A stretch of 64,000 nucleotides of DNA from Actinomycetota bacterium (GCA_036374435.1 DASUTU010000030.1:15539-79538), one strand, 5' to 3'; numbered from the stretch's first letter, positions 30,389-55,075 are shown. The notes: generated by a model from the letters alone, not told the origin. Made by a program: numbers and translations.

Positions 30389-30405
30389 CGGAGGTCGGCG
30401 CCCGT

Positions 30406-30423: not shown

Positions 30424-30477
30424 CCCCGCGGGCCGATCCCCACACCGGCCGGCGACCCGTCTTGCGATACTCCTCCG

Positions 30478-31371: not shown

Positions 31372-31811
31372 TGCAGCTCCGGCGGGCCGACGTGGTGGCC
31401 GCCCGCCGGCTGTTCGGCGGGTTGCCGGTGGCGAGCGTCGCCACGATCGGCCAGGACGGGTTCCCCCACGTCGTGCCGCTGTGGTTCGTCTGGCCCGACG
31501 ACGCGATCTACGTCTCGACCAGGCTGGAGAGCCGGACGTGGGGCAACGTCCGGGTGGATCCCCGGGTCGCGCTCACCGTCGACGTCGGCCGGGCCTGGGT
31601 CGAGATCGCCGGGATCGAGGTGCGAGGCCACGCCGAGCCCCTGCCGGCCGAACGCCCCGAGATGCGAGGCGCCATCTCCGCGTGGCACGAGAAGTACCGG
31701 TCGTTGTTGTCGGGGAACGGGTTCCCCCGGTTCGCCGAGGAGGTCCGAGGCCTGGGGTTCCTTCGCGTCGTCCCGGAGCGGATCGCCGCTTGGGACCACG
31801 CCCGGCACTGA
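31371..31811 (+). CDS. Pyridoxamine 5'-phosphate oxidase-family (FMN/F420-binding split-barrel) protein
   Basis: 146 aa; VATIGQDGFPHVVPLWFVW motif. TGATG overlap with the upstream gene. Confidence 0.65.
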   Translation: MQLRRADVVAARRLFGGLPVASVATIGQDGFPHVVPLWFVWPDDAIYVSTRLESRTWGNVRVDPRVALTVDVGRAWVEIAGIEVRGHAEPLPAERPEMRGAISAWHEKYRSLLSGNGFPRFAEEVRGLGFLRVVPERIAAWDHARH

Positions 31812-31855
31812 CCGTCTCGAGGCTTGGGACCACGCCCGGCACTGACCGGCTCGAG
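31788..31855. repeat. 34-bp perfect tandem direct repeat x2 (GCTTGGGACCACGCCCGGCACTGACCG[T/G]CTCGAG)
   Basis: Copy 1 is at 31788-31821 and contains the stop codon of the PPOX-family gene. Copy 2 is at 31822-31855. There is one mismatch. Confidence 0.9.
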
Positions 31856-31885
31856 GCGGCGAGCCGCCGCCCACCCCCCCGGCGG

Positions 31886-31915
31886 TTGAACCTCTCGAGC
31901 GGGGCGGCATAGGGT
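31886..31915 (+). promoter_or_regulatory. Candidate sigma-A promoter (TTGAAC-N18-TAGGGT) for the ggr-nuoA-N operon
   Basis: -35 TTGAAC and -10 TAGGGT; the first Rex operator overlaps the predicted +1. Confidence 0.35.
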
Positions 31916-31933
31916 TTGTGAGGAACTTCACAA
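31916..31933. promoter_or_regulatory. Rex operator 1 upstream of ggr-nuoA-N: TTGTGAGgaacTTCACAA
   Basis: 13 of 14 half-site positions match TTGTGAA-N4-TTCACAA. Confidence 0.65.
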
Positions 31934-31948
31934 GTCGTTTAGCATTGC

Positions 31949-31966
31949 TTGTGAAGGAATTCACAA
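31949..31966. promoter_or_regulatory. Rex operator 2 upstream of ggr-nuoA-N: TTGTGAAggaaTTCACAA (perfect consensus)
   Basis: All 14 half-site positions match. Centre-to-centre spacing to operator 1 is 33 bp. Confidence 0.7.
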
Positions 31967-31968
31967 GC

Positions 31969-33237
31969 GTGGGGGACAAGCCGTTGCCAGGTGGTTCGAA
32001 CACGCACGTCGAAACCGACGTCTTGATCGTCGGGGCGGGGCCCGGCGGCTCGACGGCCGCGTACCACCTGGCGCGCCACGGCGTGGACGTCACCGTCGTC
32101 GAGAAGTCCAGCTTCCCCCGCGAGAAGGTCTGCGGAGACGGGCTCACGCCGCGGGCGATCGTCCAGCTCCGCAAGATGGGGATCGATACCGACGATCCCC
32201 GGTTCGAGCGTCACGAGGGCCTTCGCATCTACTCGCGCAGGACCAGGCTCGAGTTGCCGTGGCCCGCGCTCGAGTCGTTCCCGGGGTTCGGCCTGACCAT
32301 GACCCGGTCGAGCTTCGACGAGCTCCTGGCGCGGAGGGCCGAAAAGGCCGGGGCCGCGCTGCGCGAGCGCGTGGAGGCCCTGGCGCCGATCCGCGACGAC
32401 GGCTGGGTCACGGGGGCGCGGGTCCGGGACCTCGAGCGGGACGTGGAGCTCGACGTTCGAGCGCGATTCGTCATCGCCGCCGACGGGGCGGCCTCGCGGT
32501 TCGCCGGTGCCGTCGGCGTCCGCCGTGATCCGTCCAAGCCGCTCGGCATCGCCGCGCGCCGGTACTACCGGATCGATCGCCATCCCGGTCCGTGGCTCGA
32601 GGTGTGGATGGACCTGTGGGACGGCGAATCGCTCATGCCGGGCTACGGGTGGTTCTTCGCGTTGTCCGACGGCTCCGTCAACCTCGGCGCGGGGCTGCTG
32701 AACACCTTCCGCAACTTCCGCGACGTGTCGGCGCAACAAGTGTTCGATGCGTTCGCCCGGATGCTCCCGCCGGGGTGGGGGGTGGACGAATCGACCGCCG
32801 AGGGTCGGACGCTCTCGGGTCCGCTGCCGATGGGGATGAACCGAGATCGTGTGACCGTGCCGGGGATGTTGCTCGTCGGCGACGCCGCGGGGATGGTCAA
32901 CCCGTTCAACGGTGAGGGCATCGCGTACGCCATGGAGTCCGGCGAGCTCGCCGCCGAGCTGGTCCACGACGCGCTCGTGCTCGACCGTCCGGGGCTCGCC
33001 CACGTGTATCCGACCATCCTGCGCGAGCGGTATGGGCGGTACTTCCGGATCGGGACGAACTTCGTCCGCGCGATCGGCAACCCGACTGTGATGCGGACCC
33101 TCACCGATTACGGCCTGCCACGCGCGTGGCTGATGCGGTTCGCCCTTCGGGTGATGGGCAACCTCACGGACGGATCGGAAGGGGACCTGCAGGACAAGAT
33201 GATGTACGGGCTCGAGCGCCTGGCCCGAGCGCCGTAG
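31969..33237 (+). CDS. FAD-dependent geranylgeranyl reductase family protein (MenJ-like menaquinone/prenyl reductase)
   Basis: DVLIVGAGPGGSTAAYHLA (FAD dinucleotide-binding), CGDGLTPR and GDAAGMVNPFNGEGI. Start placed at the GTG just after the Rex operators. Confidence 0.8.
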   Translation: MGDKPLPGGSNTHVETDVLIVGAGPGGSTAAYHLARHGVDVTVVEKSSFPREKVCGDGLTPRAIVQLRKMGIDTDDPRFERHEGLRIYSRRTRLELPWPALESFPGFGLTMTRSSFDELLARRAEKAGAALRERVEALAPIRDDGWVTGARVRDLERDVELDVRARFVIAADGAASRFAGAVGVRRDPSKPLGIAARRYYRIDRHPGPWLEVWMDLWDGESLMPGYGWFFALSDGSVNLGAGLLNTFRNFRDVSAQQVFDAFARMLPPGWGVDESTAEGRTLSGPLPMGMNRDRVTVPGMLLVGDAAGMVNPFNGEGIAYAMESGELAAELVHDALVLDRPGLAHVYPTILRERYGRYFRIGTNFVRAIGNPTVMRTLTDYGLPRAWLMRFALRVMGNLTDGSEGDLQDKMMYGLERLARAP

Positions 33238-33263
33238 TCCAGGGGGAGAGGAGGACACAGGGC

Positions 33264-33695
33264 GTGGAGCTTTCCGAGTACCTGCCGGTCGTGGTGCTGG
33301 CGGTGCTCTCGCTGGGGTTCGCGGTGCTCTCGTTGGCCGCGTCTTCCCTCCTGCGGCCGCGCCGTCCCACGCCGGCCAAGCTCGCGCCCTACGAGTGCGG
33401 GATCGAGCCGGAGCGGCTGCCCCGGGGCGAACGCTTCAGCGTGAAGTTCTACGTGGTCGCGATGTTGTTCATCATCTTCGACGTCGAGACCATCTTCCTG
33501 TTCGCGTGGGCCATATCGGCCCGGGCCCTCGGCGTCTTCGGTTTGGTCGTGGTCGGAATCTTCATCGTGCTGCTCTTCGTGGTCGAGGGCTACGCCTGGC
33601 TGACGGGCGGCTTGGACTGGGGTGGGCGGGAGCGTCCGGCTCCGCCGGCCGCGCTCGAGCGGGACGAGGACCGGGAGCTCGTCGGTGCCGGTTGA
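33264..33695 (+). CDS. nuoA: NADH-quinone oxidoreductase subunit A
   Basis: [21 protein letters not shown]. Strong SD GGGGGAGAGGAGGA. Confidence 0.85.
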
Positions 33696-34206
33696 GCGGA
33701 TCGAGGGCTTCCAGGCCGGACGCGGACGCGGCGCGTCCGAGGAGGAAGAGCTCAAGCGCGGCATCCTGCTGACGACGCTCGATCGGGCCGTGGGATGGGC
33801 GCGGAAGCAGTCGATGTGGCCGGTCACCTTCGGGTTGGCCTGCTGCGCCATCGAGATGATGGCAACGGGCGCGGGAACGTACGACCTCTCTCGGTGGGGG
33901 ATGGAGCTGTTCCGCGCCTCTCCCCGGCAGTCCGACCTGATGATCGTGGCCGGGCGCGTCAGTCAGAAGATGGGGCCGGTTCTTCGCACCGTCTACGACC
34001 AGATGCCCGAGCCCAAGTGGGTCATCTCGATGGGCGTGTGCGCTTCTGCCGGCGGGATGTTCACCAACTACGCCGTGATCCAGGGTGTCGACACGGTGGT
34101 TCCGGTGGACATCTACGTGCCGGGATGCCCGCCGAAGCCGGAGATGTTGATGTACGGGATCCTCCGGCTGCACGAGAAGGTTCGGACGGAGGGCACCTTC
34201 AAGTGA
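33685..34206 (+). CDS. nuoB: NADH-quinone oxidoreductase subunit B
   Basis: [21 protein letters not shown] (N2 cluster cysteines). Confidence 0.85.
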
Positions 34207-34700
34207 GGCCCGGCGAGCTGGCCGAGCGGATGCGGGCCCACACGCCCGACGTGGTAGTGGCGCGGGACGAGGTGACCGCGATCCTCGACCGGAGCGAGCT
34301 CGTCGGGACGCTGTCGGCCCTCCGGGCGGATCCCGAGCTGGCGTTCGATTTCCTGGCGAGCGTGACGGCCGCCGACTGGCCCGGACGCCGGCCGCGGTTC
34401 TGGATTGCGTACGACCTCGCCTCGATCGAGCACCGTCACCGGGTTCGAGTGAAGGTGGGCGTGGAGGGCGAGGACGCGCGCGTTCCGTCCGTCGTCTCGT
34501 TGTTCCCCACCGCGGACTGGCACGAACGCGAGACCTACGACTTCTACGGCATCGAGTTCGAGGGGCACCCCGACCTGCGCCGGATCCTGATGCCGGAGGA
34601 CTGGGAGGGCTGGCCTCTCCGCAAGGACGAGGAGCTCGGCGGCGTCGACACGCGCTACAAGGGCGCCTTCATCCCGCCCGTCGACCGGAGGGTCACGTGA
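34203..34700 (+). CDS. nuoC: NADH-quinone oxidoreductase subunit C
   Basis: [29 protein letters not shown] overlap with nuoB. Confidence 0.85.
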
Positions 34701-35998
34701 GCTCGTCGGGGCCCGCGTTCGATCCCGACCTTCGGGAGGTGGAGGCCTTCACCGAGGACGCCGGGTCCGTCGGCGAGCTCCGGCAGGAGACCATGGTGAT
34801 CAACATGGGGCCCCAGCACCCGGGAACCCATGGCGTCCTCCGGCTGCTCCTGGAGCTCGACGGCGAGACCGTCGTGTCCTGCCGTCCCATCATCGGATAC
34901 CTGCACACGGGGATCGAGAAGAACACGGAATACCGCACGTGGCAGCAGGGAGTCACGTTCGTCACTCGCGCCGACTACCTCTCCCCGTTCTTCAACGAGA
35001 CCGCGTATTGCCTGGCCGCCGAACGCCTCCTTGGCATCGAGGCGCCCCCGCGCGCCCAGGTGCTCCGGGTCCTGTTCATGGAGATGAACCGGATCGCCTC
35101 GCACCTCGTGTGGCTGGCCACCACCGGGCTGGAGCTCGGCGCCGTGAGCGTCATGCTGTACGGGTTCCGCGAGCGCGAGATGGTGCTCGACCTCTTCGAG
35201 GCCGCCACCGGTCTGCGCATGAACCACGCGTACGTGCGGATCGGCGGCGTCGTGATGGACCTCCCCGCCGACGGCCCGGAGCGCATCCTGGACTGGCTCG
35301 AGGTGATGCCCAGTCGCATCGACGACTACGTGACGCTCCTGTCCGCGAACCCGATCTGGATCGAACGAAACGTCGACGTCGGTCTCCTCTCCGCCCAGGA
35401 CGCGCTCGCGTTCGGCGTGACGGGTCCGTCACTGCGGGCGGCGGGGACCGCGAGGGACCTCCGCCGTGACGAGCCCTACTGCGGCTACGAGACCTACGAG
35501 TTCGACGTCCCCGTGCTCGACGGAGGCGATTGTTACGCGCGCTACGCCGTCCGAATCCAGGAGATGCGCGAGTCTCTGCGGATCGTTCGGCAATGCCTGG
35601 AGCGGCTCGAGGAGCCGGGGCCGGTCATGGTCGAGGACCCCAAGGTGCGCTGGCCCTCGAAGCTCGAGGTCGGGCCGGACGGGATCGGAAACTCCACCGC
35701 GTACGTCCGCCACATCATGGAGGAGTCGATGGAGGCCCTGATCCATCACTTCAAGATGGTGACCGAAGGCATCTCCGTCCCCGCCGGCGAGGTCTACGTC
35801 GCGGTCGAGTCCCCGCGGGGCGAGCTCGGCTACTACGTCGTGTCCGATGGTGGTCACCGTCCCTACCGGGTGAAGATCCGCGACCCGTCGTTCGTCAACC
35901 TCCAGGCGCTCCCGCACATGGTCGAGGACGGGCTGGTGGCCGACGTGATCGCGGCGATCGCGAGCCTGGATCCCGTCATGGGTGGGGCAGACCGCTGA
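34697..35998 (+). CDS. nuoD: NADH-quinone oxidoreductase subunit D (49 kDa)
   Basis: [18 protein letters not shown]..; 433 aa. Confidence 0.9.
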
Positions 35999-36650
35999 TG
36001 CGGGTGCTCTCGGACGATCTCCGCTCTCGGGCGGAGGGCATCGTCGAGCGCTACCCCAAGGGGCGGGAACGATCCGCGCTGATGCCGCTGCTGTACCTCG
36101 TGCAGTCCGTGGAGGGACGGGTGACGCGGGAGGGGATGCGCGAGGTGGCCGATCTCCTCGGCCTGACCATGGCGGAGGTCGAGTCGGTGGCGACCTTCTA
36201 CACGATGCTCCGGCTCCGGCCCACCGGCCGGCACCTCATCAGCGTGTGCACGAACCTGTCGTGCGCCCTTCGCGGCGCGAACGGAGTGTACGAGGCGGCC
36301 CACCGGGAGACCGGCATCCCCCACGGCGGCGAGTTGTCCGAGGACGGGTTGTTCTCGGTGCACGAGGAGGAATGTCTCGGTGCGTGCGAGGGGGCGCCGG
36401 TGGTCCAGGTGGACTTCGCCAGCCACCACCGCGTGACCCCCGAACGGATGCGCGAGCTCGTGGAGCGGCTCCGGGCGGGCGAGGTCCCCACCCCGGATCT
36501 CGGCGACGCGCCGGCGGACTTCCGCCACGCCTCGCGCATCCTCGCCGGGATCGACGGCGCCGCCAGGCCGGGCGCCGACGGGCCGGGCGCCGACGACCGG
36601 GGGGACGGGGGGGCCGACGAGCGAGGCCACGAGCGAACGGCGGCCGGGTC

Positions 36651-36654
<4 letters not shown>
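35998..36654 (+). CDS. nuoE: NADH-quinone oxidoreductase subunit E
   Basis: CTNLSCALRGANGV..CLGACEGAP [2Fe-2S] motif. Confidence 0.85.
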
Positions 36655-37999
<1,345 letters not shown>

Positions 38000-38003
<4 letters not shown>

Positions 38004-40420
38004 CTCCCCAGGGCACGGTCACGCTCACGATCGACGGCAAAGAGGTCGCGGTCCCCGGAGGGACCCTGATCATCCGGGCCGCCGAGCGGCTGGGGATCGA
38101 GATCCCGCGCTTCTGCGATCATCCGTTCCTCGAGCCGGTCGGGGCGTGCCGGCAGTGTTACGTGGAGGTCGAGGGCCAACGCAAGCTCTTCACCTCGTGC
38201 ACGACGGCCGTCGCGCCCGACATGGTTGTGCGGACCCAATACACGTCGGACGTGGTCCGGGACGCTCAGGAGGCCAACCTCGAGTTCCTCCTGCTCAACC
38301 ACCCGCTCGACTGTCCCGTCTGCGACCGCGGCGGCGAGTGCCCTCTCCAGGACCAGGCGCTGGCATTCGGGCCCGGCGAGAGCCGGTACACGGAGCCCAA
38401 ACGGGTCTACGCGAAGCCCATCCCGCTCTCTCCGCTGGTCAAGCTGGACCGGGAACGGTGCGTGCTCTGCGCCCGCTGCACCCGGTTCTGTGACGAGATC
38501 AGCGGCGACCGGTTCATCGAGCTGTTCGCCCGCGGAGCCGGCGAGCGCGTGTCGATCTCGGGCGGCGAGGATTTCCGGTCGCCGTTCAGCGGCAACACGG
38601 TGCAGATCTGTCCGGTGGGAGCGCTCACGTCTTCGACGTACCGCTTCGTTGCCCGGCCGTTCGACCTGTCCAGCGCCGACTCCGTGTGCGGTCACTGCAG
38701 CGCTGGCTGCAACGTCAAGGTGGACGTCCGCGGCGGCGAGATCGTGCGGGTGCTGGCCCGCGACAACCTCGAGGTGAACGACGCCTGGCTGTGCGACAAG
38801 GGACGGTACGCGTTCCGCCACCCGGACCTGCCCTCGCGCGTCACGACGCCGCTGATCCGCGATCGCGGCCTCGAGCCGGCCTCGTTCGGTGAGGTGCTCG
38901 GGACGATCGCCACGTGGTGCCGCGACGCGCGGGTGGCGTTCCTCGCGGGCGGCCGGCTGGCCGACGAGGACGCGTACGCGTTGTCCAAGCTCGCCCGGAC
39001 CGTCGTGGGGACCAACGACCTCGACCACCGACGAGCCTTCCTGGGTGGCAAGGCCGAGGAGCTCGCGGCCGCGGCCCCGCTGGCGACGACCTATCGCGAC
39101 GTCGAGCGGGCGAAGGTGATCCTGGTGGCCGGGCTCGACGCCGAGCAGGAGGTGCCGATCCTGCACCTGCGGATCCGCAAGGCGGCGCGCCGCGGGGCAC
39201 GGGTCTTCGTCATCCACCCCCGGACCACCCGCCTGCACGACGTCGCGGAGCACGCGCTCTGCCGGCCCGAACATCAAACGTACGTGCTCGAGCAGATCCA
39301 CGACGCGGACGGCGACGGCGACGGCTTCGTGGACCGCGTGGCCGCGGCCCTGCGGGGGGCCGGGGAGGACGGCGTCGTGTTGGCCGGCGAACGCCTTGCC
39401 GAACACCCGCTGGCTGCGGACGTCGCCCTCTCGGTGGCGCAGCGATACGGGGCACGGTTCGGCTACGTGACGCGGCGGGCGAACGACCGCGGGGCGCTGC
39501 GGGCCGGCGTCCATCCCGCCCTGCTCCCCGGGGGCCGCCGGGTGGATGACGCGGACCGGCGGGCCGAGGTCGAGTCGGTCTGGGGTTCCCTCACCGCGGC
39601 CGAGCGGGGGCGCTCGGGCCGGGAGATCCTCGAGGCCTGCGCCGCCGGCGAGATCGACCTCCTGTTCCTGGCCGGCGTCGACCCCCTTCGGGACCTGCCC
39701 GACGCCGGGCTGGTCCGCCGGGCCCTCGGCAACGTCCGGTTCAAGGTCGTCCAGGGATTGGAGCTCGGTGGCCTCGAGCCGTACGCGGACGCGTTCCTCC
39801 CGGCGGCGGCCTGGGCCGAACGGGAGGGGACGGTCACGGATTGGGAGGGTCGCCCGCAGGAGATCCGTCCGGTCCGGTCGGCGGCCGGGGTGTCCCGGCC
39901 GGACTGGGAGATCTTCGCCGTCCTCGCCGCGGCCATGGGAGGCGACCTCGGATTCGAAACGATCGAGGAGCTTCGCGCGGAGGCCGGCCGCCTGCTCGAG
40001 CCGCGGCACGCGTCGGTCCGGACCGACGCGTGGACCGGGACCGGCCGGCCGCAGCTCCTGGGGGACCTGACGTTGTTCACCTATCCGCTGCTCGTGGACG
40101 AAGGCCGCCTCTCCGACGGCGCCGACGATCTCAAGGCGGCGCTCGCCGAGGAGCCGTTCGTCGAGGTGCACCCGGAGGACGCCGAGAAGCGGGGCGTCCT
40201 GGACGGCGGCAGGGTACGGGTCCGGACGGACCTCGGACAGGCCGAGGTGCCGGTCCGGGTGACGCCGGACGTGGCGCCCGGGTCCGTGTTCGTGCCGTTC
40301 AACCAGCGGGACCTGGCCGCGAACACCCTGCTGGCGCGAGGGTTCGTGGAGCCGGCGACGATCGAACCCGTCCCGGAGCCGGCCGAGGCCGGCGCCGCCG
40401 CATCGGAGGGAGCCGCCTAG
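38000..40420 (+). CDS. nuoG: NADH-quinone oxidoreductase subunit G
   Basis: N-terminal 2Fe-2S and 4Fe-4S Cys motifs ([32 protein letters not shown]), then a molybdopterin-like domain; 806 aa. Confidence 0.9.
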
Positions 40421-41547
40421 TGGACTGGCTCGACTGGGTGCTGCTCGTGGTCCGGGTCGTCGTCGTGTTCTTCGCGCTCCTGCTCTCGGTCCTGCTCCTG
40501 ATCTGGATGGAGCGCAAGGTCATCGCCGACATGCAGACGCGGGTCGGCCCGATGCGCGCGGGGCCCCGTGGGCTGCTGATCACGCTCGCCGACGGCATCA
40601 AGCTCTTCTTCAAGGAGGGCATCACGCCCACCCTGGTCGATCGCCCCGTCTACCTGGTTGCGCCCGTGATCGCGATGTTGCCCGCGTTCCTCGCCTTCGC
40701 CGTGATCCCGTTCGGGACGAGCGTGACGGTGTTCGGCCGCGAGATCCCGTTCCAGATCGCCGACCTGAACATCGGCGTCTTGTGGGTCCTGGCCATGGGG
40801 TCGCTGATGGTCTACTCGATCGTGCTGGCGGGATGGTCGAGCGGGTCGAACTACCCGTTGCTCGGCGGGATCCGCTCCTCGGCACAGATGATCAGCTACG
40901 AGATCGGCATGGGCCTCGCGCTCGTCGCCGTGTTGTTGTACTCGGACTCGCTTCGGATGTCGGAGATCGTGGCGAACCAGGACTCGGTGTGGAACGTGAT
41001 CCCGCAGTTCCCCGCGTTCGTGATCTATCTCGTGGCCGGGCTGGCCGAGACGAACCGCCCGCCGTTCGACCTGCCGGAGGCCGAGTCGGAGCTGGTCGCC
41101 GGCTACCACACCGAATACAGCGGCATCAAGTTCGCGATGTTCTTCCTCGGCGAATACCTCAACGCCGTGACGGTGGCGGCCGTGGCGACCACCCTGTGGC
41201 TGGGCGGATGGCGCGGCCCGGCTCCGGACTTCCTGCCGTGGCTGTGGCCGGTCCTGTGGTTCCTGGTCAAGGTGCTGGCCGTCCTCTACGCCTACATCTG
41301 GATCCGCGCCACGTTGCCTCGGTTCCGCTACGACCGGCTGATGGCGTTCGGGTGGAAGTTCCTGATCCCGTTCGGCCTGCTGTGGGTCCTGGCCACCGGG
41401 GCCGTGGTCGTGCTCCCGGAGGCTTACGGCCGGCAGGCCGTCGTCACGGGGGCGGCGATCGTGGTCGGTCTCGTCCTGGCGCTCTCGCTGATCTGGCCGC
41501 TGTTCTCGCGGCCGGCGGATCGGACGCGGGAGGTGACGCCGTCGTGA
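40420..41547 (+). CDS. nuoH: NADH-quinone oxidoreductase subunit H
   Basis: [41 protein letters not shown]. Confidence 0.9.
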
Positions 41548-42044
41548 GCGAGCGGGGCCGTCCACCGCGCCCGGACTTCGGCTCGGCGATCGCCGCCGTG
41601 AGCAAGGGGCTGGCGACGGTCTTCAAACAGATCTTCCGGCGCGACGTCACCGAGCAGTACCCCAAGGAGATCGTGCCGCCGCCGCCCCGCAGCCACATCG
41701 GCCGGCACCTGCTGAACCGTCACGAGAACGGGCTCGAGAAGTGTATCGGCTGCGAGCTGTGCGCGTACGCGTGTCCGGCCGACGCGATCTGGGTCGAGGG
41801 AGCCGACAACGACCCGGAGAACCCGACGAGCCCGGGCGAGCGGTACGCGAAGGACTACCAGATCAACTACCTGCGCTGCATCATGTGCGGTCTGTGCGTC
41901 GAGGCGTGCCCGACCCGGGCCCTCACGCTCACGAGCGCGTTCGAGATGAGCTACACGTCCCGGGAGGACGCGATCCTGACCAAGCAGGAGCTCCTGGAGC
42001 CGCCCTTGCCGCTCGGGACGGCGCCGGGGACGAGGGAGGGGTAG
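41544..42044 (+). CDS. nuoI: NADH-quinone oxidoreductase subunit I
   Basis: [12 protein letters not shown] and [12 protein letters not shown]; 166 aa. Confidence 0.9.
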
Positions 42045-42047
42045 CCG

Positions 42048-42644
42048 GTGCCGCTCGACAACCTCGTCTTCTGGGTGTTCGCGCCGATCTGTGTCGGAAG
42101 CGCCCTGGCGATGATCCTGCAGCGCAACGCGGTGCACGCCGCGCTCCTCCTCGTCGTCAACTTCTTCACGATCTCGGTCTTCTACCTGGTCCTCGGCGCC
42201 TCGTTCCTGTTCGCGGTGCAGATCATCGTGTACGCGGGCGCCATCATGGTGCTGTTCCTCTTCGTGATCATGCTCCTGGGCGTGGATCGAGACGAACCGC
42301 TGGTCGAGCGGATCCGGGGACAACGCGCCCTCGGCGTGACGCTCGGGGTCGGGATCTTCCTGGAGCTGTTCTTCGCCGTCCGAGCCGGCATCGGGTTCGC
42401 CACGCGGGCGCCGGCGTCCTTCGACCGGGTCGCCAACGAGGGCGGCAACCCGGTCGCGTTGTCGCGCGTGTTGTTCCGGGATTACTTCTTCCCCTTCGAG
42501 GTCACCTCGGTGCTGCTGATCGTCGCCGCCGTGGCGGTCATGGTGCTGGCGTCCCGGCAGCGCCGGGCGATCACGCGGGCCGAGGTCGAGCGCGCCGCGG
42601 CTCAGAGCCCGGCTCGAGAGACGGCTCCGGATCCGGCGCCGTGA
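42048..42644 (+). CDS. nuoJ: NADH-quinone oxidoreductase subunit J
   Basis: 5 TM helices in typical operon position. Confidence 0.85.
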
Positions 42645-42946
42645 GGACGCCCATCTCCTACTTCCTGATCGTGTCCGGGATGCTCTTCGCCATCGGCACC
42701 GTGGGCGTGTTGGTTCGCAAGAACGCGCTCGTGATCTTCATGGCGGTCGAGCTCCAGCTGAACGCGGTGAACCTGTCGCTGGTCGCGTTCAGCCGTATGC
42801 ACAACAACCTGAACGGGCAGGTCATGGCGTTCTTCTCCATGGTCGTGGCCGCCGCCGAGGTCGTGGTCGGCCTGGCGATCATCGTGACCATCTACCGCCG
42901 TCGCCAGAGCGCCAGCGTGGACGACGCGAACGTGTTGCGAGGGTGA
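42641..42946 (+). CDS. nuoK: NADH-quinone oxidoreductase subunit K
   Basis: 101 aa; [17 protein letters not shown]. Confidence 0.85.
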
Positions 42947-42950
42947 GCGG

Positions 42951-44825
42951 ATGTTCGACCTGGCCTGGCTGATCCCCGCGCTCCCGCTCGCCGGGGCGGT
43001 CCTGAACCTGTTCGCCGGACGCCGCCTGGGGAGCCGGGCCGGCTGGGTGGCCTCCGCGCTCGTCGCGGCCTCGTTCGCCGTGGCCGTCGCCGTCCTGATC
43101 GATCTCGTGGCGCTGCCGGGCGAGGAGCGTCGTCACGCGGTTCGGCTGTTCGAGTGGATCGCGGCCGGAGCGTTCCGGGTCGAGGCGACCATCCTGCTCG
43201 ACCCGCTGTCGATGACGATGACGCTCGTCGTCACCGGCGTGGGGGCGCTGATCCACGTCTACGCGGTCGGCTACCTGGAGAACGACCCGCGCGTGGGCCT
43301 GTTCTTCTCGTACTTCAACCTGTTCGTGTTCTTCATGTTGATGCTCGTCTTGGCGGACAACTACCTCGTGCTCTACCTGGGGTGGGAGGGCGTCGGCCTC
43401 TGTTCGTACCTCCTGATCGGCTTCTGGCACGACCGTCCCGTCGCGGCGAGCGCCGCCAAGAAGGCGTTCGTCACCACCAGGATCGGCGACGCCGCGATGA
43501 TGTTGGGGCTCGTCTTGATCTTCGTGCACCTGGGGACGCTCGACTTCGAGACCGTTCTGGGGCCGGAGGCCGGGGCGCTCTCGAACGGCGCGGCGACGGC
43601 GATCGCCCTCCTGCTGCTGGCCGGCGCCGTCGGCAAGTCCGCGCAGCTCCCGCTCCACGTCTGGTTGCCCGACGCCATGGAGGGCCCCACGCCGGTCTCG
43701 GCCCTGATCCACGCGGCGACGATGGTGACGGCGGGCGTGTACCTCATCGTCCGGTCGCACCCGCTCTTCGAGGCCTCCGACATCGCGCTCACGGTGGTCC
43801 TGGTGGTCGGACTCCTGTCGGCGATCTACGCCGCGCTCGCCTCGATCGGCCAGTTCGACGTCAAGCGCGCCCTGGCCTATTCAACGATGAGCCAGATCGG
43901 CTTCATGTTCTTCGCCGCCGGCATGGGTTTCTACGCCGGGGCGATGCTCCTGCTGGTCGCGCACGCCTTCTACAAGGCCCTGTTGTTCCTGACGAGCGGC
44001 AACGTGATGCACGGCCTGCACGACGAGACCGACCTTCGGGCCATGGGAGGCCTCCGGTCGGAGATGCCCGTCTCGACCGCGTGGTTCGGCATCGGGGCGC
44101 TGGCGCTGGCCGGGGTGCCGCCGCTGGCCGGCTTCTTCGCCAAGGACCACATCGTGAACTTCGCCTCACAGTCGGGGCGGGCGACGGCATGGGTCCTGGC
44201 CTCGATCGCCGCGTTCATCTCGGCGGTGTACATCTCGCGGCCGCTCTTCCTGGTGTTCTTCGGACGCCGGCGGACGGAGGCCCGGGCGCACGAAGCGCCG
44301 TGGCGCATGCACGCACCGCTGGCGGTCCTGGCCGCCGGCGCCGTGACGAGCGGCCTGGTTCTCGGGCTCCAGGCCGAGGGCGGCCTGCTCGAACGGTTCC
44401 TGGAGCCGGTGACGGGCGCGGCCCACGGCACCGGGACCGGTCCCTCCGAGGCCGTGTTGATCGCCGTCTCGATCGTGATCGCCGTGGCGGGGGTGGCCGT
44501 CGCCTGGTGGATCTGGGGATCCGAGCGCGTCGACTGGCAGTCGTTCCCCGAGCGTCAGCCCGAGCTCGCGGGGTGGCTCTCGAACGCCTTCTACCTGAAC
44601 GCGCTGTATTCGTGGCTGGTCCGGGCTCCGGGGCTGGGGTTCGGCCGGGGCCTCCGAGTCGTGGACGACCGCGTCGTGGACGGGGCGGCCAACGAGCTCG
44701 GCGTCGCGGTCACGCGCTCGTCCCGCCTCGCCCCCATCCTGCAGTCCGGGTTGGTCCGCTCGTACGCGCTCGCGTTCCTGCTCGGTGCGGTCGTGCTCCT
44801 GCTCTTCATGGGGTTGCGGTTCTGA
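42951..44825 (+). CDS. nuoL: NADH-quinone oxidoreductase subunit L
   Basis: 624 aa antiporter-like subunit; LPDAMEGPTPVSALIHAATMV. Confidence 0.9.
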   Translation: MFDLAWLIPALPLAGAVLNLFAGRRLGSRAGWVASALVAASFAVAVAVLIDLVALPGEERRHAVRLFEWIAAGAFRVEATILLDPLSMTMTLVVTGVGALIHVYAVGYLENDPRVGLFFSYFNLFVFFMLMLVLADNYLVLYLGWEGVGLCSYLLIGFWHDRPVAASAAKKAFVTTRIGDAAMMLGLVLIFVHLGTLDFETVLGPEAGALSNGAATAIALLLLAGAVGKSAQLPLHVWLPDAMEGPTPVSALIHAATMVTAGVYLIVRSHPLFEASDIALTVVLVVGLLSAIYAALASIGQFDVKRALAYSTMSQIGFMFFAAGMGFYAGAMLLLVAHAFYKALLFLTSGNVMHGLHDETDLRAMGGLRSEMPVSTAWFGIGALALAGVPPLAGFFAKDHIVNFASQSGRATAWVLASIAAFISAVYISRPLFLVFFGRRRTEARAHEAPWRMHAPLAVLAAGAVTSGLVLGLQAEGGLLERFLEPVTGAAHGTGTGPSEAVLIAVSIVIAVAGVAVAWWIWGSERVDWQSFPERQPELAGWLSNAFYLNALYSWLVRAPGLGFGRGLRVVDDRVVDGAANELGVAVTRSSRLAPILQSGLVRSYALAFLLGAVVLLLFMGLRF

Positions 44826-46456
44826 TGCCCTGGCTCACGGTGCTCATCTTCCTGCCGCTGCTCGGGGTCCCGGTGCTCGCGTTGTGGCCGCGGATGTCGG
44901 ACGCCGTCGCCCGGTGGGTGACGCTCGTGGTGATGGTGGCCACGTTCATCGTGGCCCTCGGCGCCCTCGGCGCCTTCGACCCGCAGGTCGCCGGGTATCA
45001 GCTGGTCGAGCGGGTCGAGTGGGTGTCGTCGGCGGGCCTGGCGTACCTGGTGGGCGTCGACGGGTTCAGCATCTGGCTGGTCGTCTTGACCGCGTTCCTG
45101 TTCCCGGTGGGGCTGCTGGCCGCGTGGACCACGACCCATCGCGTCCGGCTGTTCATGGCGCTGTCGCTGCTGCTCGAGACCGTGGTGCTGGGGTCGTTCT
45201 GCGCGCTCGACCTGTTGTTGTTCTTCGTGTTCTTCGAGGCGCTGCTGGTCCCCATGTTCCTGATCATCGGGGTCTGGGGATCGGGCCGGCGTGTGTACGC
45301 GAGCGTCAAGTTCTTCCTCTACACGATGTTCGGCTCCGCGTTCATCCTCGCCGCCACCGTCTACCTCTGGTTCCAGACATCGGCGCAGTTCGGACAGGGG
45401 AGCTTCGACCTTCGCCAGATGGAGCAGCTCTCCTTGGGCGTGACGGCGCAGCGATGGCTGTTCGTCGCGTTCTTCGTCGGGTTCGCGGTGAAGGTGCCGA
45501 TCTTTCCTCTGCACACGTGGCTCCCCGACGCCCACACGGAGGCTCCCACGCACGGATCGATCGTCTTGGCCGCGCTCCTGCTGAAGGCCGGTCCGTACGG
45601 GATCCTCCGGTTCAATCTCGACCTGTTCCCCGAGGCCAGCCGGTATTTCGCGGACGCCATCGCGGTGCTGGCCGTGATCGGCATCGTCTACGGCGCCATC
45701 GTGGCCATGATGCAGACCGACGTGAAACGCCTGGTGGCGTATTCGTCCGTGAGCCACATGGGGTTCGTGATCCTGGGGATCTTCACGTTCACCACCGAGG
45801 GGATGAGCGGCGCGGCGATCCAGATGGTGAACCACGGGTTGGCCACCGGGCTGCTGTTCTTCGCCATCGGGATGTTGTACGAGCGCACGCACACCCGAGA
45901 GATGGACGAGATGAGCGGCCTGGGGCAGGTGACGCCGTGGATCGCGGGGACGTTCCTGGTGGCGAGCCTGTCCTCGATCGGCCTGCCCGGACTGAACAAC
46001 TTCGTCGGCGAGTTCCTGGTGATCCTGGGGGCGTTCGGGGCGGACCGATGGTTCGGCGCCTTCGCCGTCAGTGGGGTGGTGCTCGCCGCGATCTACCTGC
46101 TGTGGGCGTACCAGCGCACGTTCCACGGGCCGGCCCGCGAGGGGCAACGCGGCCTGGCGGACATGGTGCCCCGCGAGTTCGCGGCCGTGGTGCCGGTCGT
46201 CGCCGCGATGATCTTCATCGGCGTGTACCCCAAGGTCGTGCTCGACCGGATCAACCCGACCAGCGACGGCGTCGTCCGGTGGGTCGAGACGGTGGAGGTC
46301 GATCAGCCCGACCTGCCCGGCGGGCTTCGGGCCGACGTCCAACCCGACTACGCGCCGCCGGAGGGCGTCATCGCGGCGGAGCGGGCGGGGGTTCGGGGGG
46401 CTCAAGGAGCGAGCGCGAATGCGCGAGCGTTCGCCCCCCGAGGGGAAGGCCCGTGA
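44825..46456 (+). CDS. nuoM: NADH-quinone oxidoreductase subunit M
   Basis: 543 aa; WLPDAHTEAPTHGSIVLAALLLK. Confidence 0.9.
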   Translation: MPWLTVLIFLPLLGVPVLALWPRMSDAVARWVTLVVMVATFIVALGALGAFDPQVAGYQLVERVEWVSSAGLAYLVGVDGFSIWLVVLTAFLFPVGLLAAWTTTHRVRLFMALSLLLETVVLGSFCALDLLLFFVFFEALLVPMFLIIGVWGSGRRVYASVKFFLYTMFGSAFILAATVYLWFQTSAQFGQGSFDLRQMEQLSLGVTAQRWLFVAFFVGFAVKVPIFPLHTWLPDAHTEAPTHGSIVLAALLLKAGPYGILRFNLDLFPEASRYFADAIAVLAVIGIVYGAIVAMMQTDVKRLVAYSSVSHMGFVILGIFTFTTEGMSGAAIQMVNHGLATGLLFFAIGMLYERTHTREMDEMSGLGQVTPWIAGTFLVASLSSIGLPGLNNFVGEFLVILGAFGADRWFGAFAVSGVVLAAIYLLWAYQRTFHGPAREGQRGLADMVPREFAAVVPVVAAMIFIGVYPKVVLDRINPTSDGVVRWVETVEVDQPDLPGGLRADVQPDYAPPEGVIAAERAGVRGAQGASANARAFAPRGEGP

Positions 46457-47901
46457 TCGGCACCCCCGCCATCGACCTGGGACCCGTCGTCCCCGAGCTC
46501 ATTCTGGTGGGGACGGCCATCCTGGTCTTGCTGGGCGCCGCGCTGGCGCGGCGGGTCGAGCCGCTCGGCTGGTTGTTCGTCTCGCTGGCCGGGGTGGGCG
46601 GCGCCGCGGCGGCCGCGGTGGCGCTCTGGGACCGCGAGGGGGACCTGACGGTCCTGGGCGGAACGGTCGCCGCCGACCGGTTCGGGGTTGCGGTTCGATT
46701 GATCCTGCTGGCCATCGCGGCGATCGGCCTCGTCCTCGGCCACCACTACTTCGAACGTTCGGGCGAGGGCCGGCCGGAGTTCTACCCGCTCGTGCTGTTC
46801 GCGACCTCTGGCATGACGCTCATCGCCGTCGCCACCGACCTGATCCTGGTGTTCCTGGCGCTCGAGGTACTGTCGCTGTCGCTGTACGTGTTGACCGGCC
46901 TCGGATCGCGGCTGGGCTCGATCGAGGGCGCGATGAAGTACTTCTTGCTCGGCGCGTTCTCCTCGGCCTTCTTCCTGTTCGGCGTCGCGATGGCCTACGG
47001 CGCGACGGGATCCACGGGCTTCGCCGACGTGGCGTCCTCGCTGGCGGGCCGGACCGACGGGCTGGCGCTGGCCCTGACCGGGCTGGGGCTGCTCGCCGTG
47101 GGGTTCGCCTTCAAGGTCTCCGCCGTCCCCTTCCACATGTGGACGCCGGACGTGTACCAGGGGGCCCCCACGGCGGTGACGGCGTTCATGTCGGCCGCCA
47201 CGAAGGTGGCCGGGTTCGCGGCGTTGATGCGTCTGTTCAACATCGCGCTCCAGCCACTCGCCTGGGACTGGCGGCCGATCGTGTGGGCCCTGGCGGCCGT
47301 TTCGGTCGTGGCGGGCAGCGTGTTGGCCATTGCCCAGCGCGACGTCAAGCGCCTGCTCGCGTATTCGAGCATCGCCCACGCCGGGTTCGTGCTCACGGGC
47401 TTGACCGCGGCCGGCGAACCCGGCATCAGCGCGGGCCTGTATTACCTGCTCGCGTACTCGCTGACCATTCTCGGGGCGTTCGGCGTGGTCATGCTGGTGT
47501 CCTCGCGGGGCGACCGGCGCACCGAGCTGGAGGCCTACCGAGGCCTGGGCATGCACAGCCCGGTGCTGGCCGGCCTCCTGGCCGTCTTCCTCCTGTCGCT
47601 CACGGGGATCCCGCCGACGGCCGGGTTCGTGGCGAAGGTCGCGGTGTTCAGCGCCGCGATGGAGGCCGGAGGGTGGCCGCTCGTGTTGATCGGCGTCGTC
47701 GCGAGCGTGGTCGCCGCCTATTTCTACCTGCGGGTCATCGTGTTGATGTTCATGCACGAGCCGGAGGGCGAACCCGAGACCGACCGAGGCTGGGTGCCGA
47801 GGTTCGTCGTGGGGCTGCCGGCGGCCCTCGTGCTGATCCTGGGCGTGTTCCCGGGGCTCGTGGTCGGCTTCCTGGAGACCGCGGCGGTGTTGCGCTGGTG
47901 A
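46453..47901 (+). CDS. nuoN: NADH-quinone oxidoreductase subunit N
   Basis: 482 aa; MWTPDVYQGAPTAVTAFM. Confidence 0.9.
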   Translation: MIGTPAIDLGPVVPELILVGTAILVLLGAALARRVEPLGWLFVSLAGVGGAAAAAVALWDREGDLTVLGGTVAADRFGVAVRLILLAIAAIGLVLGHHYFERSGEGRPEFYPLVLFATSGMTLIAVATDLILVFLALEVLSLSLYVLTGLGSRLGSIEGAMKYFLLGAFSSAFFLFGVAMAYGATGSTGFADVASSLAGRTDGLALALTGLGLLAVGFAFKVSAVPFHMWTPDVYQGAPTAVTAFMSAATKVAGFAALMRLFNIALQPLAWDWRPIVWALAAVSVVAGSVLAIAQRDVKRLLAYSSIAHAGFVLTGLTAAGEPGISAGLYYLLAYSLTILGAFGVVMLVSSRGDRRTELEAYRGLGMHSPVLAGLLAVFLLSLTGIPPTAGFVAKVAVFSAAMEAGGWPLVLIGVVASVVAAYFYLRVIVLMFMHEPEGEPETDRGWVPRFVVGLPAALVLILGVFPGLVVGFLETAAVLRW

Positions 47902-47935
47902 CGCCGACGCGCGTCCTCAGGGTAGGGTCGGGGTC

Positions 47936-48958
47936 GTGAGCCGGCGCGTCATCCCAGGCCTCGAAGCGCCCGACCCGGGGCTCGAGCGCGACATCCGGGC
48001 CCGCCTGGACCAGGTCGAGGAGGCTCTGGAGAAGGCCGTGCGGGCGGACTCGAACCTGCTCGGCGAGACCGCCCAGTACCTGCTCTCCGCGGGCGGGAAG
48101 CGGTTCCGCCCGATCCTCACGTTGTTGTCGGGGTACTTCGGCGACCCGGCCGATCCGCGGTTGATCCCCGGGTCGGTCGCCATCGAGCTCGTGCATCAGG
48201 CCACCCTGTACCACGACGACGTGATCGACGAGGCCGACGCGCGGCACGGCGTCCCCGCCGCCAACGTCCGGTGGAGCAACACCGTCGCCATCCTGACGGG
48301 GGACTACCTGTTCGCGAAGGCGTCGGAGATCTCGACCGACCTCGGGACCGACATCTGCGCCCTGCTGGCTCGGACCATCGCCGTCCTGTGCGACGGGCAG
48401 ATCCGGGAGGTGGAGGCCGCCGGCCGCGTCGAGCAGACGGTGGACGCCTACATGGAGATCATCCGCCGCAAGACCGGGGCGCTGATCGCGACGTCGTGCC
48501 GGCTCGGCGGGATGCTCTCGGACGCCCCCGCGGAGTCCGTCGACGTGCTGGAGCAGTTCGGCGAGGCGCTGGGGCTCGCCTTCCAGCTCTCCGACGACAT
48601 CATGGACTTCACCTCTACCAAGCAGGAGCTGCAGAAGCAGCCCGGTCAGGACCTCAAGGAAGGCGTGTACACGTTCCCGGTGCTGCACGCCCTCGTCGAC
48701 GGCGAACGCGCCGAGGAGCTGGGGGCGATCCTTCGATCGGGACCGCCGGAGGGGCCCGAGCTGGAGCGGGCGCTGGCCATCATCCACTCGTCCGAGAGCC
48801 TGTCGGTGGCGCGAGCCGCCGTGGTCGCGGAGGTCGACCTGGCCCACGGCCTCGCGTCCCGACTGCCGGTTGGCCCCGCCCGAGCGGCGTTGGAGCAGCT
48901 CGCGGAGTTCCTCGCTACGCGGTGCGGCGCCAGGCAGGGGGGTGCGGCGGACTCATGA
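47936..48958 (+). CDS. Long-chain (hepta/octaprenyl-type) polyprenyl diphosphate synthase, probably for the menaquinone side chain
   Basis: LYHDDVIDEAD and QLSDDIMD; 340 aa. Confidence 0.8.
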   Translation: MSRRVIPGLEAPDPGLERDIRARLDQVEEALEKAVRADSNLLGETAQYLLSAGGKRFRPILTLLSGYFGDPADPRLIPGSVAIELVHQATLYHDDVIDEADARHGVPAANVRWSNTVAILTGDYLFAKASEISTDLGTDICALLARTIAVLCDGQIREVEAAGRVEQTVDAYMEIIRRKTGALIATSCRLGGMLSDAPAESVDVLEQFGEALGLAFQLSDDIMDFTSTKQELQKQPGQDLKEGVYTFPVLHALVDGERAEELGAILRSGPPEGPELERALAIIHSSESLSVARAAVVAEVDLAHGLASRLPVGPARAALEQLAEFLATRCGARQGGAADS

Positions 48959-49012
48959 AGCGATCCGCACGGCGCGGCAGTCCCCCGGGAGGGAGGGCTG
49001 AGCAGGTGATGT

Positions 49013-49021
49013 TGCTAGAAT
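49013..49021 (+). promoter_or_regulatory. Extended -10 element TGcTAGAAT of a candidate nuo2 promoter
   Basis: A TGn-TAnnnT hexamer 9 nt upstream of the Rex operator. Confidence 0.3.
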
Positions 49022-49030
49022 CCGCGCTGC

Positions 49031-49048
49031 TCGCGAAAACCTTCACAA
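49031..49048. promoter_or_regulatory. Rex operator upstream of nuoA2: TCGCGAAaaccTTCACAA
   Basis: 12 of 14 half-site positions match; it ends 16 nt before the nuoA2 GTG. Confidence 0.55.
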
Positions 49049-49064: not shown

Positions 49065-49430
49065 GTGAGCACCTATTACGAGTCCTACGGAGTCGTTCTC
49101 GCGGTCCTGGTCGTCGGTGGTGGTTTGGTCGCGGTCGCCTTCGGAGCCGCACGACTGATCGCGCCCAGGCGCCCCCTGCCGGAGAAGCTGCTGACCTACG
49201 AATGCGGGATCGACCCGGTGGGGCAGGGGTGGTCCCAGAGCCAGGTGCGCTACTACATCTACGGGTTCCTGTTCGTGATCTTCGACATCGAGGCCGTCTT
49301 CCTGTTCCCCTGGGCCAGGATCTTCGAGGACCTCGGCTACCAGGCCGTGGCCGAGATGGCCATCTTCATCGGCATCCTGGGGGCGGGCCTGCTCTACGCC
49401 TGGCGGAAGGGGGTCCTGCGATGGGCCTGA
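49065..49430 (+). CDS. nuoA: NADH-quinone oxidoreductase subunit A, second copy
   Basis: [23 protein letters not shown]; 121 aa. Confidence 0.85.
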
Positions 49431-49933
49431 TCACCGAACGCACCGGGCTCGCGCAGATCCAGCCCATCAAGTTCATCCTCAACTGGGGACGCAAGTATTC
49501 GCTGTGGGTGTTCAACTTCGGGCTGGCCTGCTGCTCGATCGAGTTCATCGCCGCCTCGACCTCCAAACACGACTTCATCCGGTTCGGCGTGATTCCGTTC
49601 GCGCACGGCCCGCGCCAGGCCGACCTCCTCGTGATCGCCGGGACGCCGACCGACAAGATGGCCCCGGTCATCAAGCGGCTCTACGACCAGATGGCGGACC
49701 CCAAGTACGTCATCTCGATGGGGTCGTGCGCCAACTGCGGGGGTCCGTACTGGGACTCGTATTCGGTGTTGAAGGGGATCGACCAGGTCCTGCCGGTGGA
49801 CGTCTACGTGCCCGGGTGCCCGCCGAGGCCCGAGGCGCTCCTGGAGGGCATCGTCCGGCTCCAGCAGAAGATCGAGAAGGAAGACATCAGGGAGAAGTGG
49901 AGTGGCAGGCTCACGGCCGCTACCCCCTCCTGA
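49421..49933 (+). CDS. nuoB: NADH-quinone oxidoreductase subunit B, second copy
   Basis: [29 protein letters not shown]. Confidence 0.85.
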
Positions 49934-53096: not shown

Positions 53097-53101
53097 CCGC
53101 C

Positions 53102-55075
<1,974 letters not shown>

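Follow-up and report, generated by a model that had tools for sequence, protein, structure and literature searches.

Predicted Rex Operators at Respiratory Promoters of an Uncultured Actinomycetota Lineage

Introduction

A 64,000-nucleotide (nt) stretch of DNA from an Actinomycetota bacterium (GCA_036374435.1 DASUTU010000030.1:15539-79538; the whole stretch is called the window below) carries a gene for the redox-sensing repressor Rex inside a respiratory gene cluster, and palindromes closely resembling the Rex operator, TTGTGAA-N4-TTCACAA, lie ahead of several of the neighbouring operons. The question raised by this arrangement is whether Rex adjusts these operons to the NADH/NAD+ poise of the cell, as an original prediction had proposed for two complex-I-type operons (nuoA-N and nuo2), the reductase gene ggr, the operon of a Rieske/cytochrome b (bc-type) complex and ccdA. 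The analysis described here supports a local Rex regulon on respiratory promoters: the rex gene is canonical, the operators are near-perfect and, above all, the sites are conserved in about 20 related genomes and in 29 metagenomic contexts. We consider it probable that the palindromes are operators of the Rex protein encoded at 16146-16841.

In Streptomyces, Rex directly represses nuoA1-N1, atp, cyd and rex-hem (PMC5355995, PMC9739823); the footprinted operators of S. avermitilis extend from -42 to -16 at nuoA1, from -39 to -17 at rex and from -3 to +25 at cydA1 (PMC5355995). With the Rex protein of Staphylococcus aureus, substitutions at operator positions 4 and 5 weaken binding most, and a change of spacer length strongly impairs it (PMC2883068). 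The window belongs to an uncultured lineage of Actinomycetota known only from soil metagenome-assembled genomes (MAGs), its best COX2 match being 82% identical.

Rex-type operator sequences in the window

The window was scanned with the consensus TTGTGAA-N4-TTCACAA, allowing up to 3 mismatches, and 100 dinucleotide shuffles served as background. Five matches were obtained where 0.18 would be expected, a number reached in none of the 100 shuffles (the G+C content of the window is 70%). Four of the five are intergenic. Two of these stand in tandem ahead of ggr and nuoA-N, 33 base-pairs (bp) centre to centre as originally described: a distal site with one mismatch at 31916-31933 (TTGTGAGGAACTTCACAA) and a proximal, perfect site at 31949-31966 (TTGTGAAGGAATTCACAA). 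A third site, again with one mismatch, is found at 21775-21792 (TCGTGAAAGCCTTCACAA), between the divergently oriented bc operon and ccdA. The fourth, ahead of nuoA2 at 49031-49048 (TCGCGAAAACCTTCACAA), has two mismatches, one of them at position 4; its right half is perfect and its left half degenerate. When scored with a weight matrix trained only on the orthologous sites of other genomes, the four sites reach 24.4, 32.6, 30.5 and 23.1 bits, respectively, compared with 17.4 bits for the next match in the window and a maximum of 14.4 bits in 20 shuffles. The 17.4-bit match is the fifth consensus match (42154-42171). It has three mismatches, including one at the critical G5, lies within the nuoJ coding sequence and was rejected as an operator; it probably arose by chance.

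The operator consensus is thus represented by the sites at 31949, 31916 and 21775, in part by the one at 49031, and is departed from by a further palindrome ahead of rex (16105-16125) whose spacer measures 5 nt. All five sequences listed in the original prediction were found exactly as written, and the peptide runs KAFTSA, KEFTSV and KTFTSV to which it drew attention are a direct consequence of the DNA sequence. Its statement that four sites match the consensus very closely holds for the three with 0-1 mismatch; the nuoA2 site is not canonical, for reasons that become apparent from its orthologues (see below).

The Rex protein

The presumptive repressor gene, rex, occupies positions 16146-16841 on the plus strand. 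Its product contains the two Pfam domains expected, PF06971 (N-terminal winged-helix, DNA-binding) and PF02629 (Rossmann, NAD(H)-binding), and scores 331.6 bits against the NCBIfam Rex equivalog NF003992, whose cut-off is 226. About 200 residues align with Rex chains of the PDB (E 2e-43 to 1e-39), among them those of Thermus aquaticus and T. thermophilus (1xcb, 2dt5, 3ikt, 3ikv; E ~1e-39). The recognition helix and wing (VRKDLS..GSYGTRGVGY) are nearly identical to those of Thermus Rex, and the Rossmann GxGxxG motif (GIGNLG) is aligned as well. One of these entries, 3ikt, is a Thermus Rex-DNA complex whose operator is the same 18-bp palindrome. The near-identity of the DNA-reading residues suggests that Rex is the binding protein and, by analogy, that NADH would be the release signal. 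Thermus belongs to a different phylum, and the window protein is some 20 residues longer at the C-terminus. Domain, family and structure matches together bear out the claim that a rex gene resides in the same window as its candidate targets. Although the longest open reading frame (ORF) begins at 16140, the probable translation start is the GTG at 16146, and the mRNA would then be leaderless.

Conservation and specificity of the sites

Related loci were gathered by anchoring on COX2 (65 loci from species-representative genomes, designated by L numbers; the syntenic Actinomycetota loci have a COX2 45-82% identical), and contexts of nuoA2 by anchoring on NuoA2 in metagenome contigs (41 distinct contexts). 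The sites recur at orthologous promoters throughout. The bc/ccdA operator is present with at most 2 mismatches in 21 of the 22 syntenic loci that cover the divergent region, the proximal ggr operator occurs at the same place with 0-1 mismatch in all 10 loci that reach ggr, and the nuoA2 element is found in 29 of the 41 contexts. The rex gene itself is syntenic with the target operons in 15 of the 15 related loci that reach its position; the Rex orthologue of L002 is 86% identical.

Among 36 orthologous canonical sites, positions T1, G3, T4, G5, A6, A7, T12, T13, C14, A15, C16 and A18 are invariant and the flanking C at -1 and G at +1 nearly so; no such constraint is seen in the central 4 nt or the outer flanks. 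Position 2 is a C in 10 of 21 sites and position 17 stays A in 19 of the 21. As position 2 switches between T and C with no matching change at position 17, the half-sites evolve independently, as expected for a site read by a protein and not for a hairpin.

Matches are also specific in their placement. In the syntenic loci (467 kilobases, kb), matches with at most 2 mismatches fall almost exclusively at orthologous promoter positions, and in the nuoA2 loci (358 kb) every match with at most 1 mismatch does so. The exceptions are single matches in the non-syntenic loci L019 (before cox2) and L022; the latter, a perfect site, was set aside as uninformative, being located at a contig end with the downstream gene cut off. 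No comparable match could be placed in a coding region of these approximately 0.8 Mb of relatives' loci, which, to the extent that the available sequence permits, answers the concern that such 18-mers might be equally frequent inside genes.

Predicted tandem promoter-operator modules ahead of ggr-nuoA-N

The ggr gene and nuoA-N extend from 31984 to 47901 on the plus strand (nuoA-N, 33264-47901), the Nuo subunits A to N being assigned by Pfam and NCBIfam. Alignments of orthologues point to the TTG at 31984, which follows a Shine-Dalgarno sequence (GGGGGA), as the ggr start. The gap between ggr and nuoA measures 26 nt and includes a Shine-Dalgarno sequence, and no operator was found at this junction; ggr and nuoA-N probably form one transcription unit. 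The ggr product passes the geranylgeranyl-reductase subfamily model TIGR02032 (233.8 bits, cut-off 158.8) and falls below the model of its best equivalog, MenJ (NF045655; 254 bits, cut-off 700). Its designation as a MenJ-like reductase is therefore acceptable at the level of the geranylgeranyl-reductase family but not at that of the MenJ equivalog.

Each of the two operators adjoins a promoter-like sequence. The distal promoter, TTGAAC (31886-31891), 18 nt, TAGGGT (31910-31915), is found just as proposed, with TAGGGT directly abutting the distal site; L002, L004 and L012-L014 share the two hexamers at this spacing. A strict sigma-70 scan did not call this promoter. The -10 of the proximal promoter, TAGCAT (31940-31945, plus strand), precedes the perfect site by 3 nt, and in each of the 10 related loci the proximal operator is preceded, at -1 to 5 nt, by a -10-like hexamer (TAGCAT, TAGGCT or TAGCCT). 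The left half of the distal operator, TTGTGA, lies 18 nt from TAGCAT and could double as the proximal -35. A tandem distal site accompanies the proximal one, at 29-33 bp, in five of these loci (L002, L012-L014 and L016), and L004 retains a degenerate copy. With this arrangement both operators would cover the deduced transcription start points.

Two features adjacent to this promoter were noted. A 34-nt tandem duplication (31769-31870) is present at the 3′ end of the gene for an F420/PPOX-class oxidoreductase (31371-31811); the stop codon is part of the repeated unit (...CGGCACTGACCGnCTCGAGGC...), a duplicated remnant of which sits just upstream of the ggr promoter. In L015 (19560-19600), the sole relative in which the oxidoreductase gene g31371 is not followed by ggr, the palindrome TTGAGCAGATGCTCAA follows a TAGGGT -10, which points to a different operator and regulator in the equivalent promoter slot.

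The divergent bc/ccdA region

The bc-type complex operon (16955-21663, minus strand; Pfam assignments, gene order kept in related loci) comprises genes for a 116-residue protein (hyp116), a 2x[4Fe-4S] ferredoxin, the N- and C-terminal parts of cytochrome b, a Rieske protein, a cytochrome c and a 248-residue protein; no family match was obtained for the 116- and 248-residue proteins. Rightward from the divergent region are ccdA (Pfam DsbD_TM), the operon for a caa3-type oxidase, a fused ctaA-ctaB gene and two polyprenyl synthase genes. In the operator of this region, the T-GTGAA and TTCAC-A positions are invariant and the central 4 nt and flanks variable. An alignment of the divergent region from the window and L001-L009 contains five conserved blocks, one of which is the operator itself.

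Which promoter the operator serves was judged from the remaining blocks. One of them corresponds to the -10 of a proximal leftward promoter of the bc operon (21723-21728, minus strand; TAGAAT, or TATAAT in relatives). Six loci have a gap of 35-37 nt between this -10 and the operator and fifteen a gap of 46-50 nt, with no value in between and with both classes mixed among close relatives; the operator is thus centred at approximately -57 or -68 relative to the -10. Such a periodicity of one helical turn may reflect an interaction that depends on helical phase, for which simple occlusion offers no explanation. Two further blocks, ACTATCGCA(A/G)G at 21805-21816 and CGCAACCC at 21829-21836, are near-invariant in the same ten sequences, 17-18 nt apart. 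Read on the minus strand, we infer, they constitute a distal leftward bc promoter (21805-21833) with a -35 TTGCGG (21828-21833), 17 nt, and an extended -10 TGcCATAGT (21805-21813). A simple promoter scan did not call it. Its start point would fall about 6 nt before the operator, placing the latter at approximately +7 to +24. On the rightward side, ccdA has its own -10-like sequence in the alignment, TACACT (21858-21863), 7 nt before the GTG start codon at 21870. As the operator lies just past the putative distal start and the ccdA promoter some 65 bp beyond it, the distal bc promoter seems the most plausible target in this clade. The original assignment of the site to both divergent promoters is thereby modified: the operator is there and conserved, yet better placed to block the distal bc promoter than ccdA.

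The situation is different in a sister clade (L012-L014 and L047), where the site is found 13 nt upstream of a TAAGCT -10, itself 12-15 nt before the ATG of ccdA, and overlaps the ccdA -35. The corresponding interpretation for the window clade, with the ACTATCGCA block as a rightward -10 and the operator over its -35, was considered weak, as the hexamer there (TATGGC or TATCGC) has no final T; it holds in the L012 clade with its TAAGCT. The caa3 oxidase operon was downgraded as a target of the 21775 site, since cox2 has its own strongly conserved, operator-free TACAGT -10 block.

The latter block, GGTG(n)TACAGTGCGC, is found directly upstream of cox2 in the window (22698-22703) and at the same place in L001-L010, L016-L020 and L027. 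It looks like an extended -10, implying a separate promoter and a near-leaderless cox2 mRNA; since the GTG at 22702 overlaps the block, translation of cox2 probably begins further downstream, perhaps at the GTG at 22717. As for gene content, the Rieske/cytochrome b cluster is unlike the usual actinobacterial qcrCAB in having cytochrome b split between two genes, a mono-haem cytochrome c and a ferredoxin, a gene order shared by about 20 related MAG loci. Also conserved in related loci is a single 628-residue ORF (28559-30445, minus strand) that fuses CtaA (COX15, haem A synthase) to CtaB (a UbiA-family haem O synthase).

The nuo2 operon and its putative variant operator

The second complex-I-like operon, nuoA2-B2-C2-H2-I2-J2-K2-L2-M2-N2 (49065-58177, plus strand; Pfam and NCBIfam assignments), falls short of a 14-subunit complex I: neither NuoD, the quinone-site subunit, nor NuoE, NuoF and NuoG, which make up the NADH module, were found in it. 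The same order, pps2-A2-B2-C2-H2-I2 with no D subunit, occurs in 17 related metagenomic contigs. A complex lacking D, E, F and G is not demonstrably an NADH dehydrogenase, so that the claim of Rex control over "both NADH dehydrogenases" was overstated. NuoI2 is unusually long, at 290 residues. An IS110-family transposase gene (59116-60330, minus strand; DEDD_Tnp_IS110 and Transposase_20) is found just downstream of the operon and a gene for an M48 peptidase.

The extended -10 reported ahead of nuoA2, TGcTAGAAT (49013-49021, plus strand), and the distance of 16 nt between the operator and the GTG at 49065 were both verified; the operator starts 9 nt after this -10, and TGnTAGAAT or TGnTAGGAT is present upstream of nearly all nuoA2 orthologues. 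The element shared by the 29 contexts reads T[TC]G[AG]GAA-N4-TTCACAA and follows the -10 at a distance of 4-12 nt (mode 6). In its left half, position 4 is A in 19 and G in 10 of these contexts and C in the window, but never T. The nuoA2 operator is likely to be a conserved, deliberately imperfect site, which by analogy with characterized operators would be expected to give weak repression.

The palindrome ahead of rex

The palindrome TTCGTGAA-CGCAT-TTCACGAA (16105-16125), a perfect 8-nt inverted repeat around a 5-nt spacer, lies over the -35 and spacer of the rex promoter, whose -10 is TATCAT (16131-16136, plus strand). Taken alone it lacks significance: a match of this kind turned up at least once in 24 of 100 shuffles of the window. 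Its arms and 5-nt spacing are kept in L002, with a different spacer sequence, and L012, L014 and L047 also have them, with mismatches; in L006 the spacer measures 6 nt, and the right half alone remains in L005, L007 and L008. No inverted repeat was found at this place in L015, L018, L020, L026 and L027, and in another clade a direct TTGTGA repeat replaces the palindrome. The "weaker variant" of the operator that had been placed ahead of rex is thus real as a sequence, but is neither spaced like a Rex operator nor significant by itself. Since its spacing departs from 4 nt, autoregulation of rex through this palindrome is possible but doubtful.

Immediately to the left, genes for an extracytoplasmic function (ECF) sigma factor and an RskA-type anti-sigma factor (14459-15768, minus strand) diverge from rex and from the glutaredoxin-like gene that precedes it, glrx (15819-16070). 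This arrangement is conserved in related loci, and the ECF/RskA pair is possibly a second redox or stress input to the cluster.

A model for Rex control

By the rules of the Rex family, the circuit would operate as follows. At a low NADH/NAD+ ratio, the NAD+-bound Rex dimer would occupy the 18-20-bp palindrome C-TTGTGAA-N4-TTCACAA-G and block transcription; upon NADH accumulation it would leave the DNA and the operons would be derepressed, providing more capacity to reoxidise NADH and to pass electrons down the chain. At ggr-nuoA-N, repression would be exerted through two tandem promoter-operator modules, in each of which the operator begins 0-3 nt after the -10 and covers the transcription start, the distal operator presumably overlapping the -35 of the proximal promoter as well. 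The degenerate left half of the nuoA2 operator would weaken binding and make this operon the leakiest or the first to be derepressed. A single operator would block the distal leftward bc promoter in the window clade and overlap the ccdA -35 in the sister clade. Sites over a start point or a -35 are in the geometry of a repressor, as in Streptomyces, with positions here deduced from conserved hexamers.

Some observations weigh against this model. The strict scan for sigma-70 promoters and terminators called no promoter in the three regions, and the positions were deduced from conserved -10-like hexamers, which precede the ggr and nuoA2 operators by 0-9 nt, and from the -35/extended -10 pair at bc/ccdA. 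An operator centred near -57 or -68 of the proximal bc promoter is in no classic position for repression. The conserved -10 sequences of ccdA and cox2 are free of operator overlap, and direct Rex control of the oxidase is unsupported. Twelve of the 41 orthologous contexts lack the nuoA2 element or retain it in decayed form, and in the window it is substituted at position 4, a change that weakens S. aureus Rex binding most; the extra spacer nucleotide ahead of rex is likewise a type of change that strongly reduces binding of that protein (PMC2883068).

Alternative explanations

A further objection is that TGTGA-N6-TCACA, the core contained in every canonical site, is common to CRP-family sites. 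The palindromes might accordingly be targets of a CRP/FNR-family protein (the actinobacterial Crp/GlxR) responding to cAMP or another signal, with rex a mere neighbour. Regulators of this family control respiratory genes in Corynebacterium and Mycobacterium, and a Crp reportedly induces cydAB in M. smegmatis. Their sites are built on TGTGA-N6-TCACA, a core of 16 bp in which the 6-nt spacer is unconstrained, and usually occupy the activator positions -41.5, -61.5 and -71.5; the bc operator, at about -57 or -68 in spacing classes one helical turn apart, recalls a class I activator geometry. This, however, is the sole activator-like distance, and it concerns the proximal bc promoter. The ggr and nuoA2 sites, located over the deduced starts, and the L012-clade site, over the ccdA -35, are in repressor positions. 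All 36 sites share T1, A7, T12 and A18, although positions 7 and 12 fall inside the spacer that CRP leaves free, and the near-invariant C at -1 and G at +1 outline the 18-20-bp Rex operator. With rex conserved in the cluster and no cNMP-binding domain among the window genes scanned, a CRP-type explanation appears highly improbable. Still less credible is the notion that the palindromes are RNA or DNA hairpins (structures of 5′ untranslated regions, attenuators) or dispersed repeats. The ggr and nuoA2 palindromes would fall in the first 20 nt or so of the mRNA, where a stem of 7 bp closed by a 4-nt loop could arise. An RNA element is nonetheless ruled out by the absence of compensatory change between positions 2 and 17, by the conserved nuoA2 variant, which breaks the stem at position 4, and by an Rfam search of the window that returned no match; and the shared sequence is limited to 18-20 bp with no flanking repeat.

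More serious, if on balance unlikely, is that Rex binds at 21775, 31916 and 31949 only, the nuoA2 element and the palindrome ahead of rex being ineffective (relics, promoter-context sequence or targets of another factor), with nuo2 and rex outside NADH/NAD+ control. The S. aureus binding data speak for such a division, as do the absence of T at position 4 in all 29 nuoA2 contexts, where all 36 canonical sites have it, and the lack of significance and frequent loss or rearrangement of the rex-upstream element among relatives. NADH-responsive control is also less obviously logical for an operon devoid of the NADH-oxidising module. On the other hand, the nuoA2 element keeps a perfect TTCACAA, the 4-nt spacing, 5-6 of 7 left-half positions and a fixed place after the -10 in 29 contexts, features not readily accounted for unless a dimeric protein of Rex-like specificity binds there. 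The palindrome ahead of rex, for its part, has arms that are conserved between the window and L002 while the spacer varies, and lies across the -35 and spacer just where the rex operator of Streptomyces has been footprinted; even half-sites are protected by S. avermitilis Rex (PMC5355995).

Beyond control of all these promoters by one repressor, a more elaborate possibility is that this lineage has graded classes of Rex operator instead of a single switch, Rex or a partner acting also as activator or architectural protein at about -57/-68 of the bc operon. The hemi-degenerate operator of a nuo2 operon lacking the NADH module, the extra spacer bp at rex and the helical-phase spacing at bc (35-37 or 46-50 bp) are the reasons for entertaining it, and we regard it as improbable. 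If true, activator or architectural action at the bc operon would represent a non-canonical role for Rex.

Comparison with known Rex systems

The nearest known relatives of the Rex regulon proposed here are those of S. coelicolor and S. avermitilis (nuoA1-N1, cydA1B1CD, atpIBEFHAGDC and rex-hemAC1DB), which belong to the same phylum and share the repressor family and the consensus TTGTGAANNNNTTCACAA. Among the direct targets there is a complex I operon, as is predicted here, and their operators overlap the -35/spacer region or the start, as those of the window would. The differences concern gene context and scope. The window rex is inside the respiratory cluster, next to a glutaredoxin-like gene and not to heme-synthesis genes; the nuo operator precedes the upstream ggr/MenJ-like gene and is duplicated, with two promoters; the candidate targets additionally include the Rieske/cytochrome b complex, ccdA and a second nuo-like operon; and the candidate autoregulatory site has a 5-nt spacer, compared with 4 nt in Streptomyces. 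The operator of S. aureus and Bacillus subtilis (TTGTGAAW4TTCACAA) is the same as in the window, whereas their regulons consist mainly of fermentation, anaerobic respiration and cydAB/ndh genes. Spacers in these organisms are preferably A/T-rich, those of the window lineage often G/C-rich (AGCC, AACC, TCCC). With actinobacterial CRP/GlxR sites the likeness is confined to the core pentamers; the invariant T1, A7, T12 and A18 and the repressor-type placement do not fit CRP.

The circuit extends one already known from Streptomyces; its principle is established and the gain incremental. Compared with the literature examined, the candidate novelties are the association of a MenJ-like reductase with nuo as a target, the Rieske/cytochrome b complex or ccdA, and a nuo2 operon devoid of D, E, F and G, together with the putative tandem promoter-operator modules and two conserved operator variants. 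A literature search revealed no precedent for Rex control of qcr/cta. For these uncultured soil Actinomycetota, the prediction is that NADH/NAD+ poise, acting through Rex, sets the levels of complex I and of a menaquinone-tailoring-type reductase, of a second complex-I-like pump and of the Rieske/cytochrome b complex or cytochrome c maturation. The Streptomyces regulon (nuo, cyd, atp, rex-hem) would thus be extended in the direction of complex III and of the modification of quinones. The tuning of derepression order by operator strength has natural test cases in the position-4 variant of nuoA2 and the additional spacer nucleotide at rex.

Rex-like palindromes in more distant loci

Rex-like palindromes recur in other phyla, each conserved within its phylum. 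TCGTGAATnTTTTCACAT (TCGTGAATCCTTTCACAT in L035) and GTGTGAAGACTTTCACGA are found shortly upstream of the caa3 cox2 gene in Gemmatimonadota (L032, L034, L035, L040 and L043) and Chloroflexi (L019), and sites of the TTGTGAAACTTTGCACAA type occur 0.2-2 kb upstream of cox2 in Dehalococcoidia (L033, L038, L044, L048, L051, L053 and L057). No rex gene was found within 10 kb of these palindromes. The caa3 oxidase may be under Rex-type control in those phyla, though not obviously so in the window lineage.

Finally, four more distant nuoA loci (L127, L134, L142 and L145; 53-55% identical) present a TTTGGC -35 followed by [CAGT]TGTGAA-N4-TTCACTA, the last bases of which form the -10 (TAnnnT). The operator thus lies between and over the two promoter elements, much as does the footprinted operator of Streptomyces nuoA1. 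This suggests that Rex controls nuoA widely across the phylum, in a geometry that depends on the lineage.

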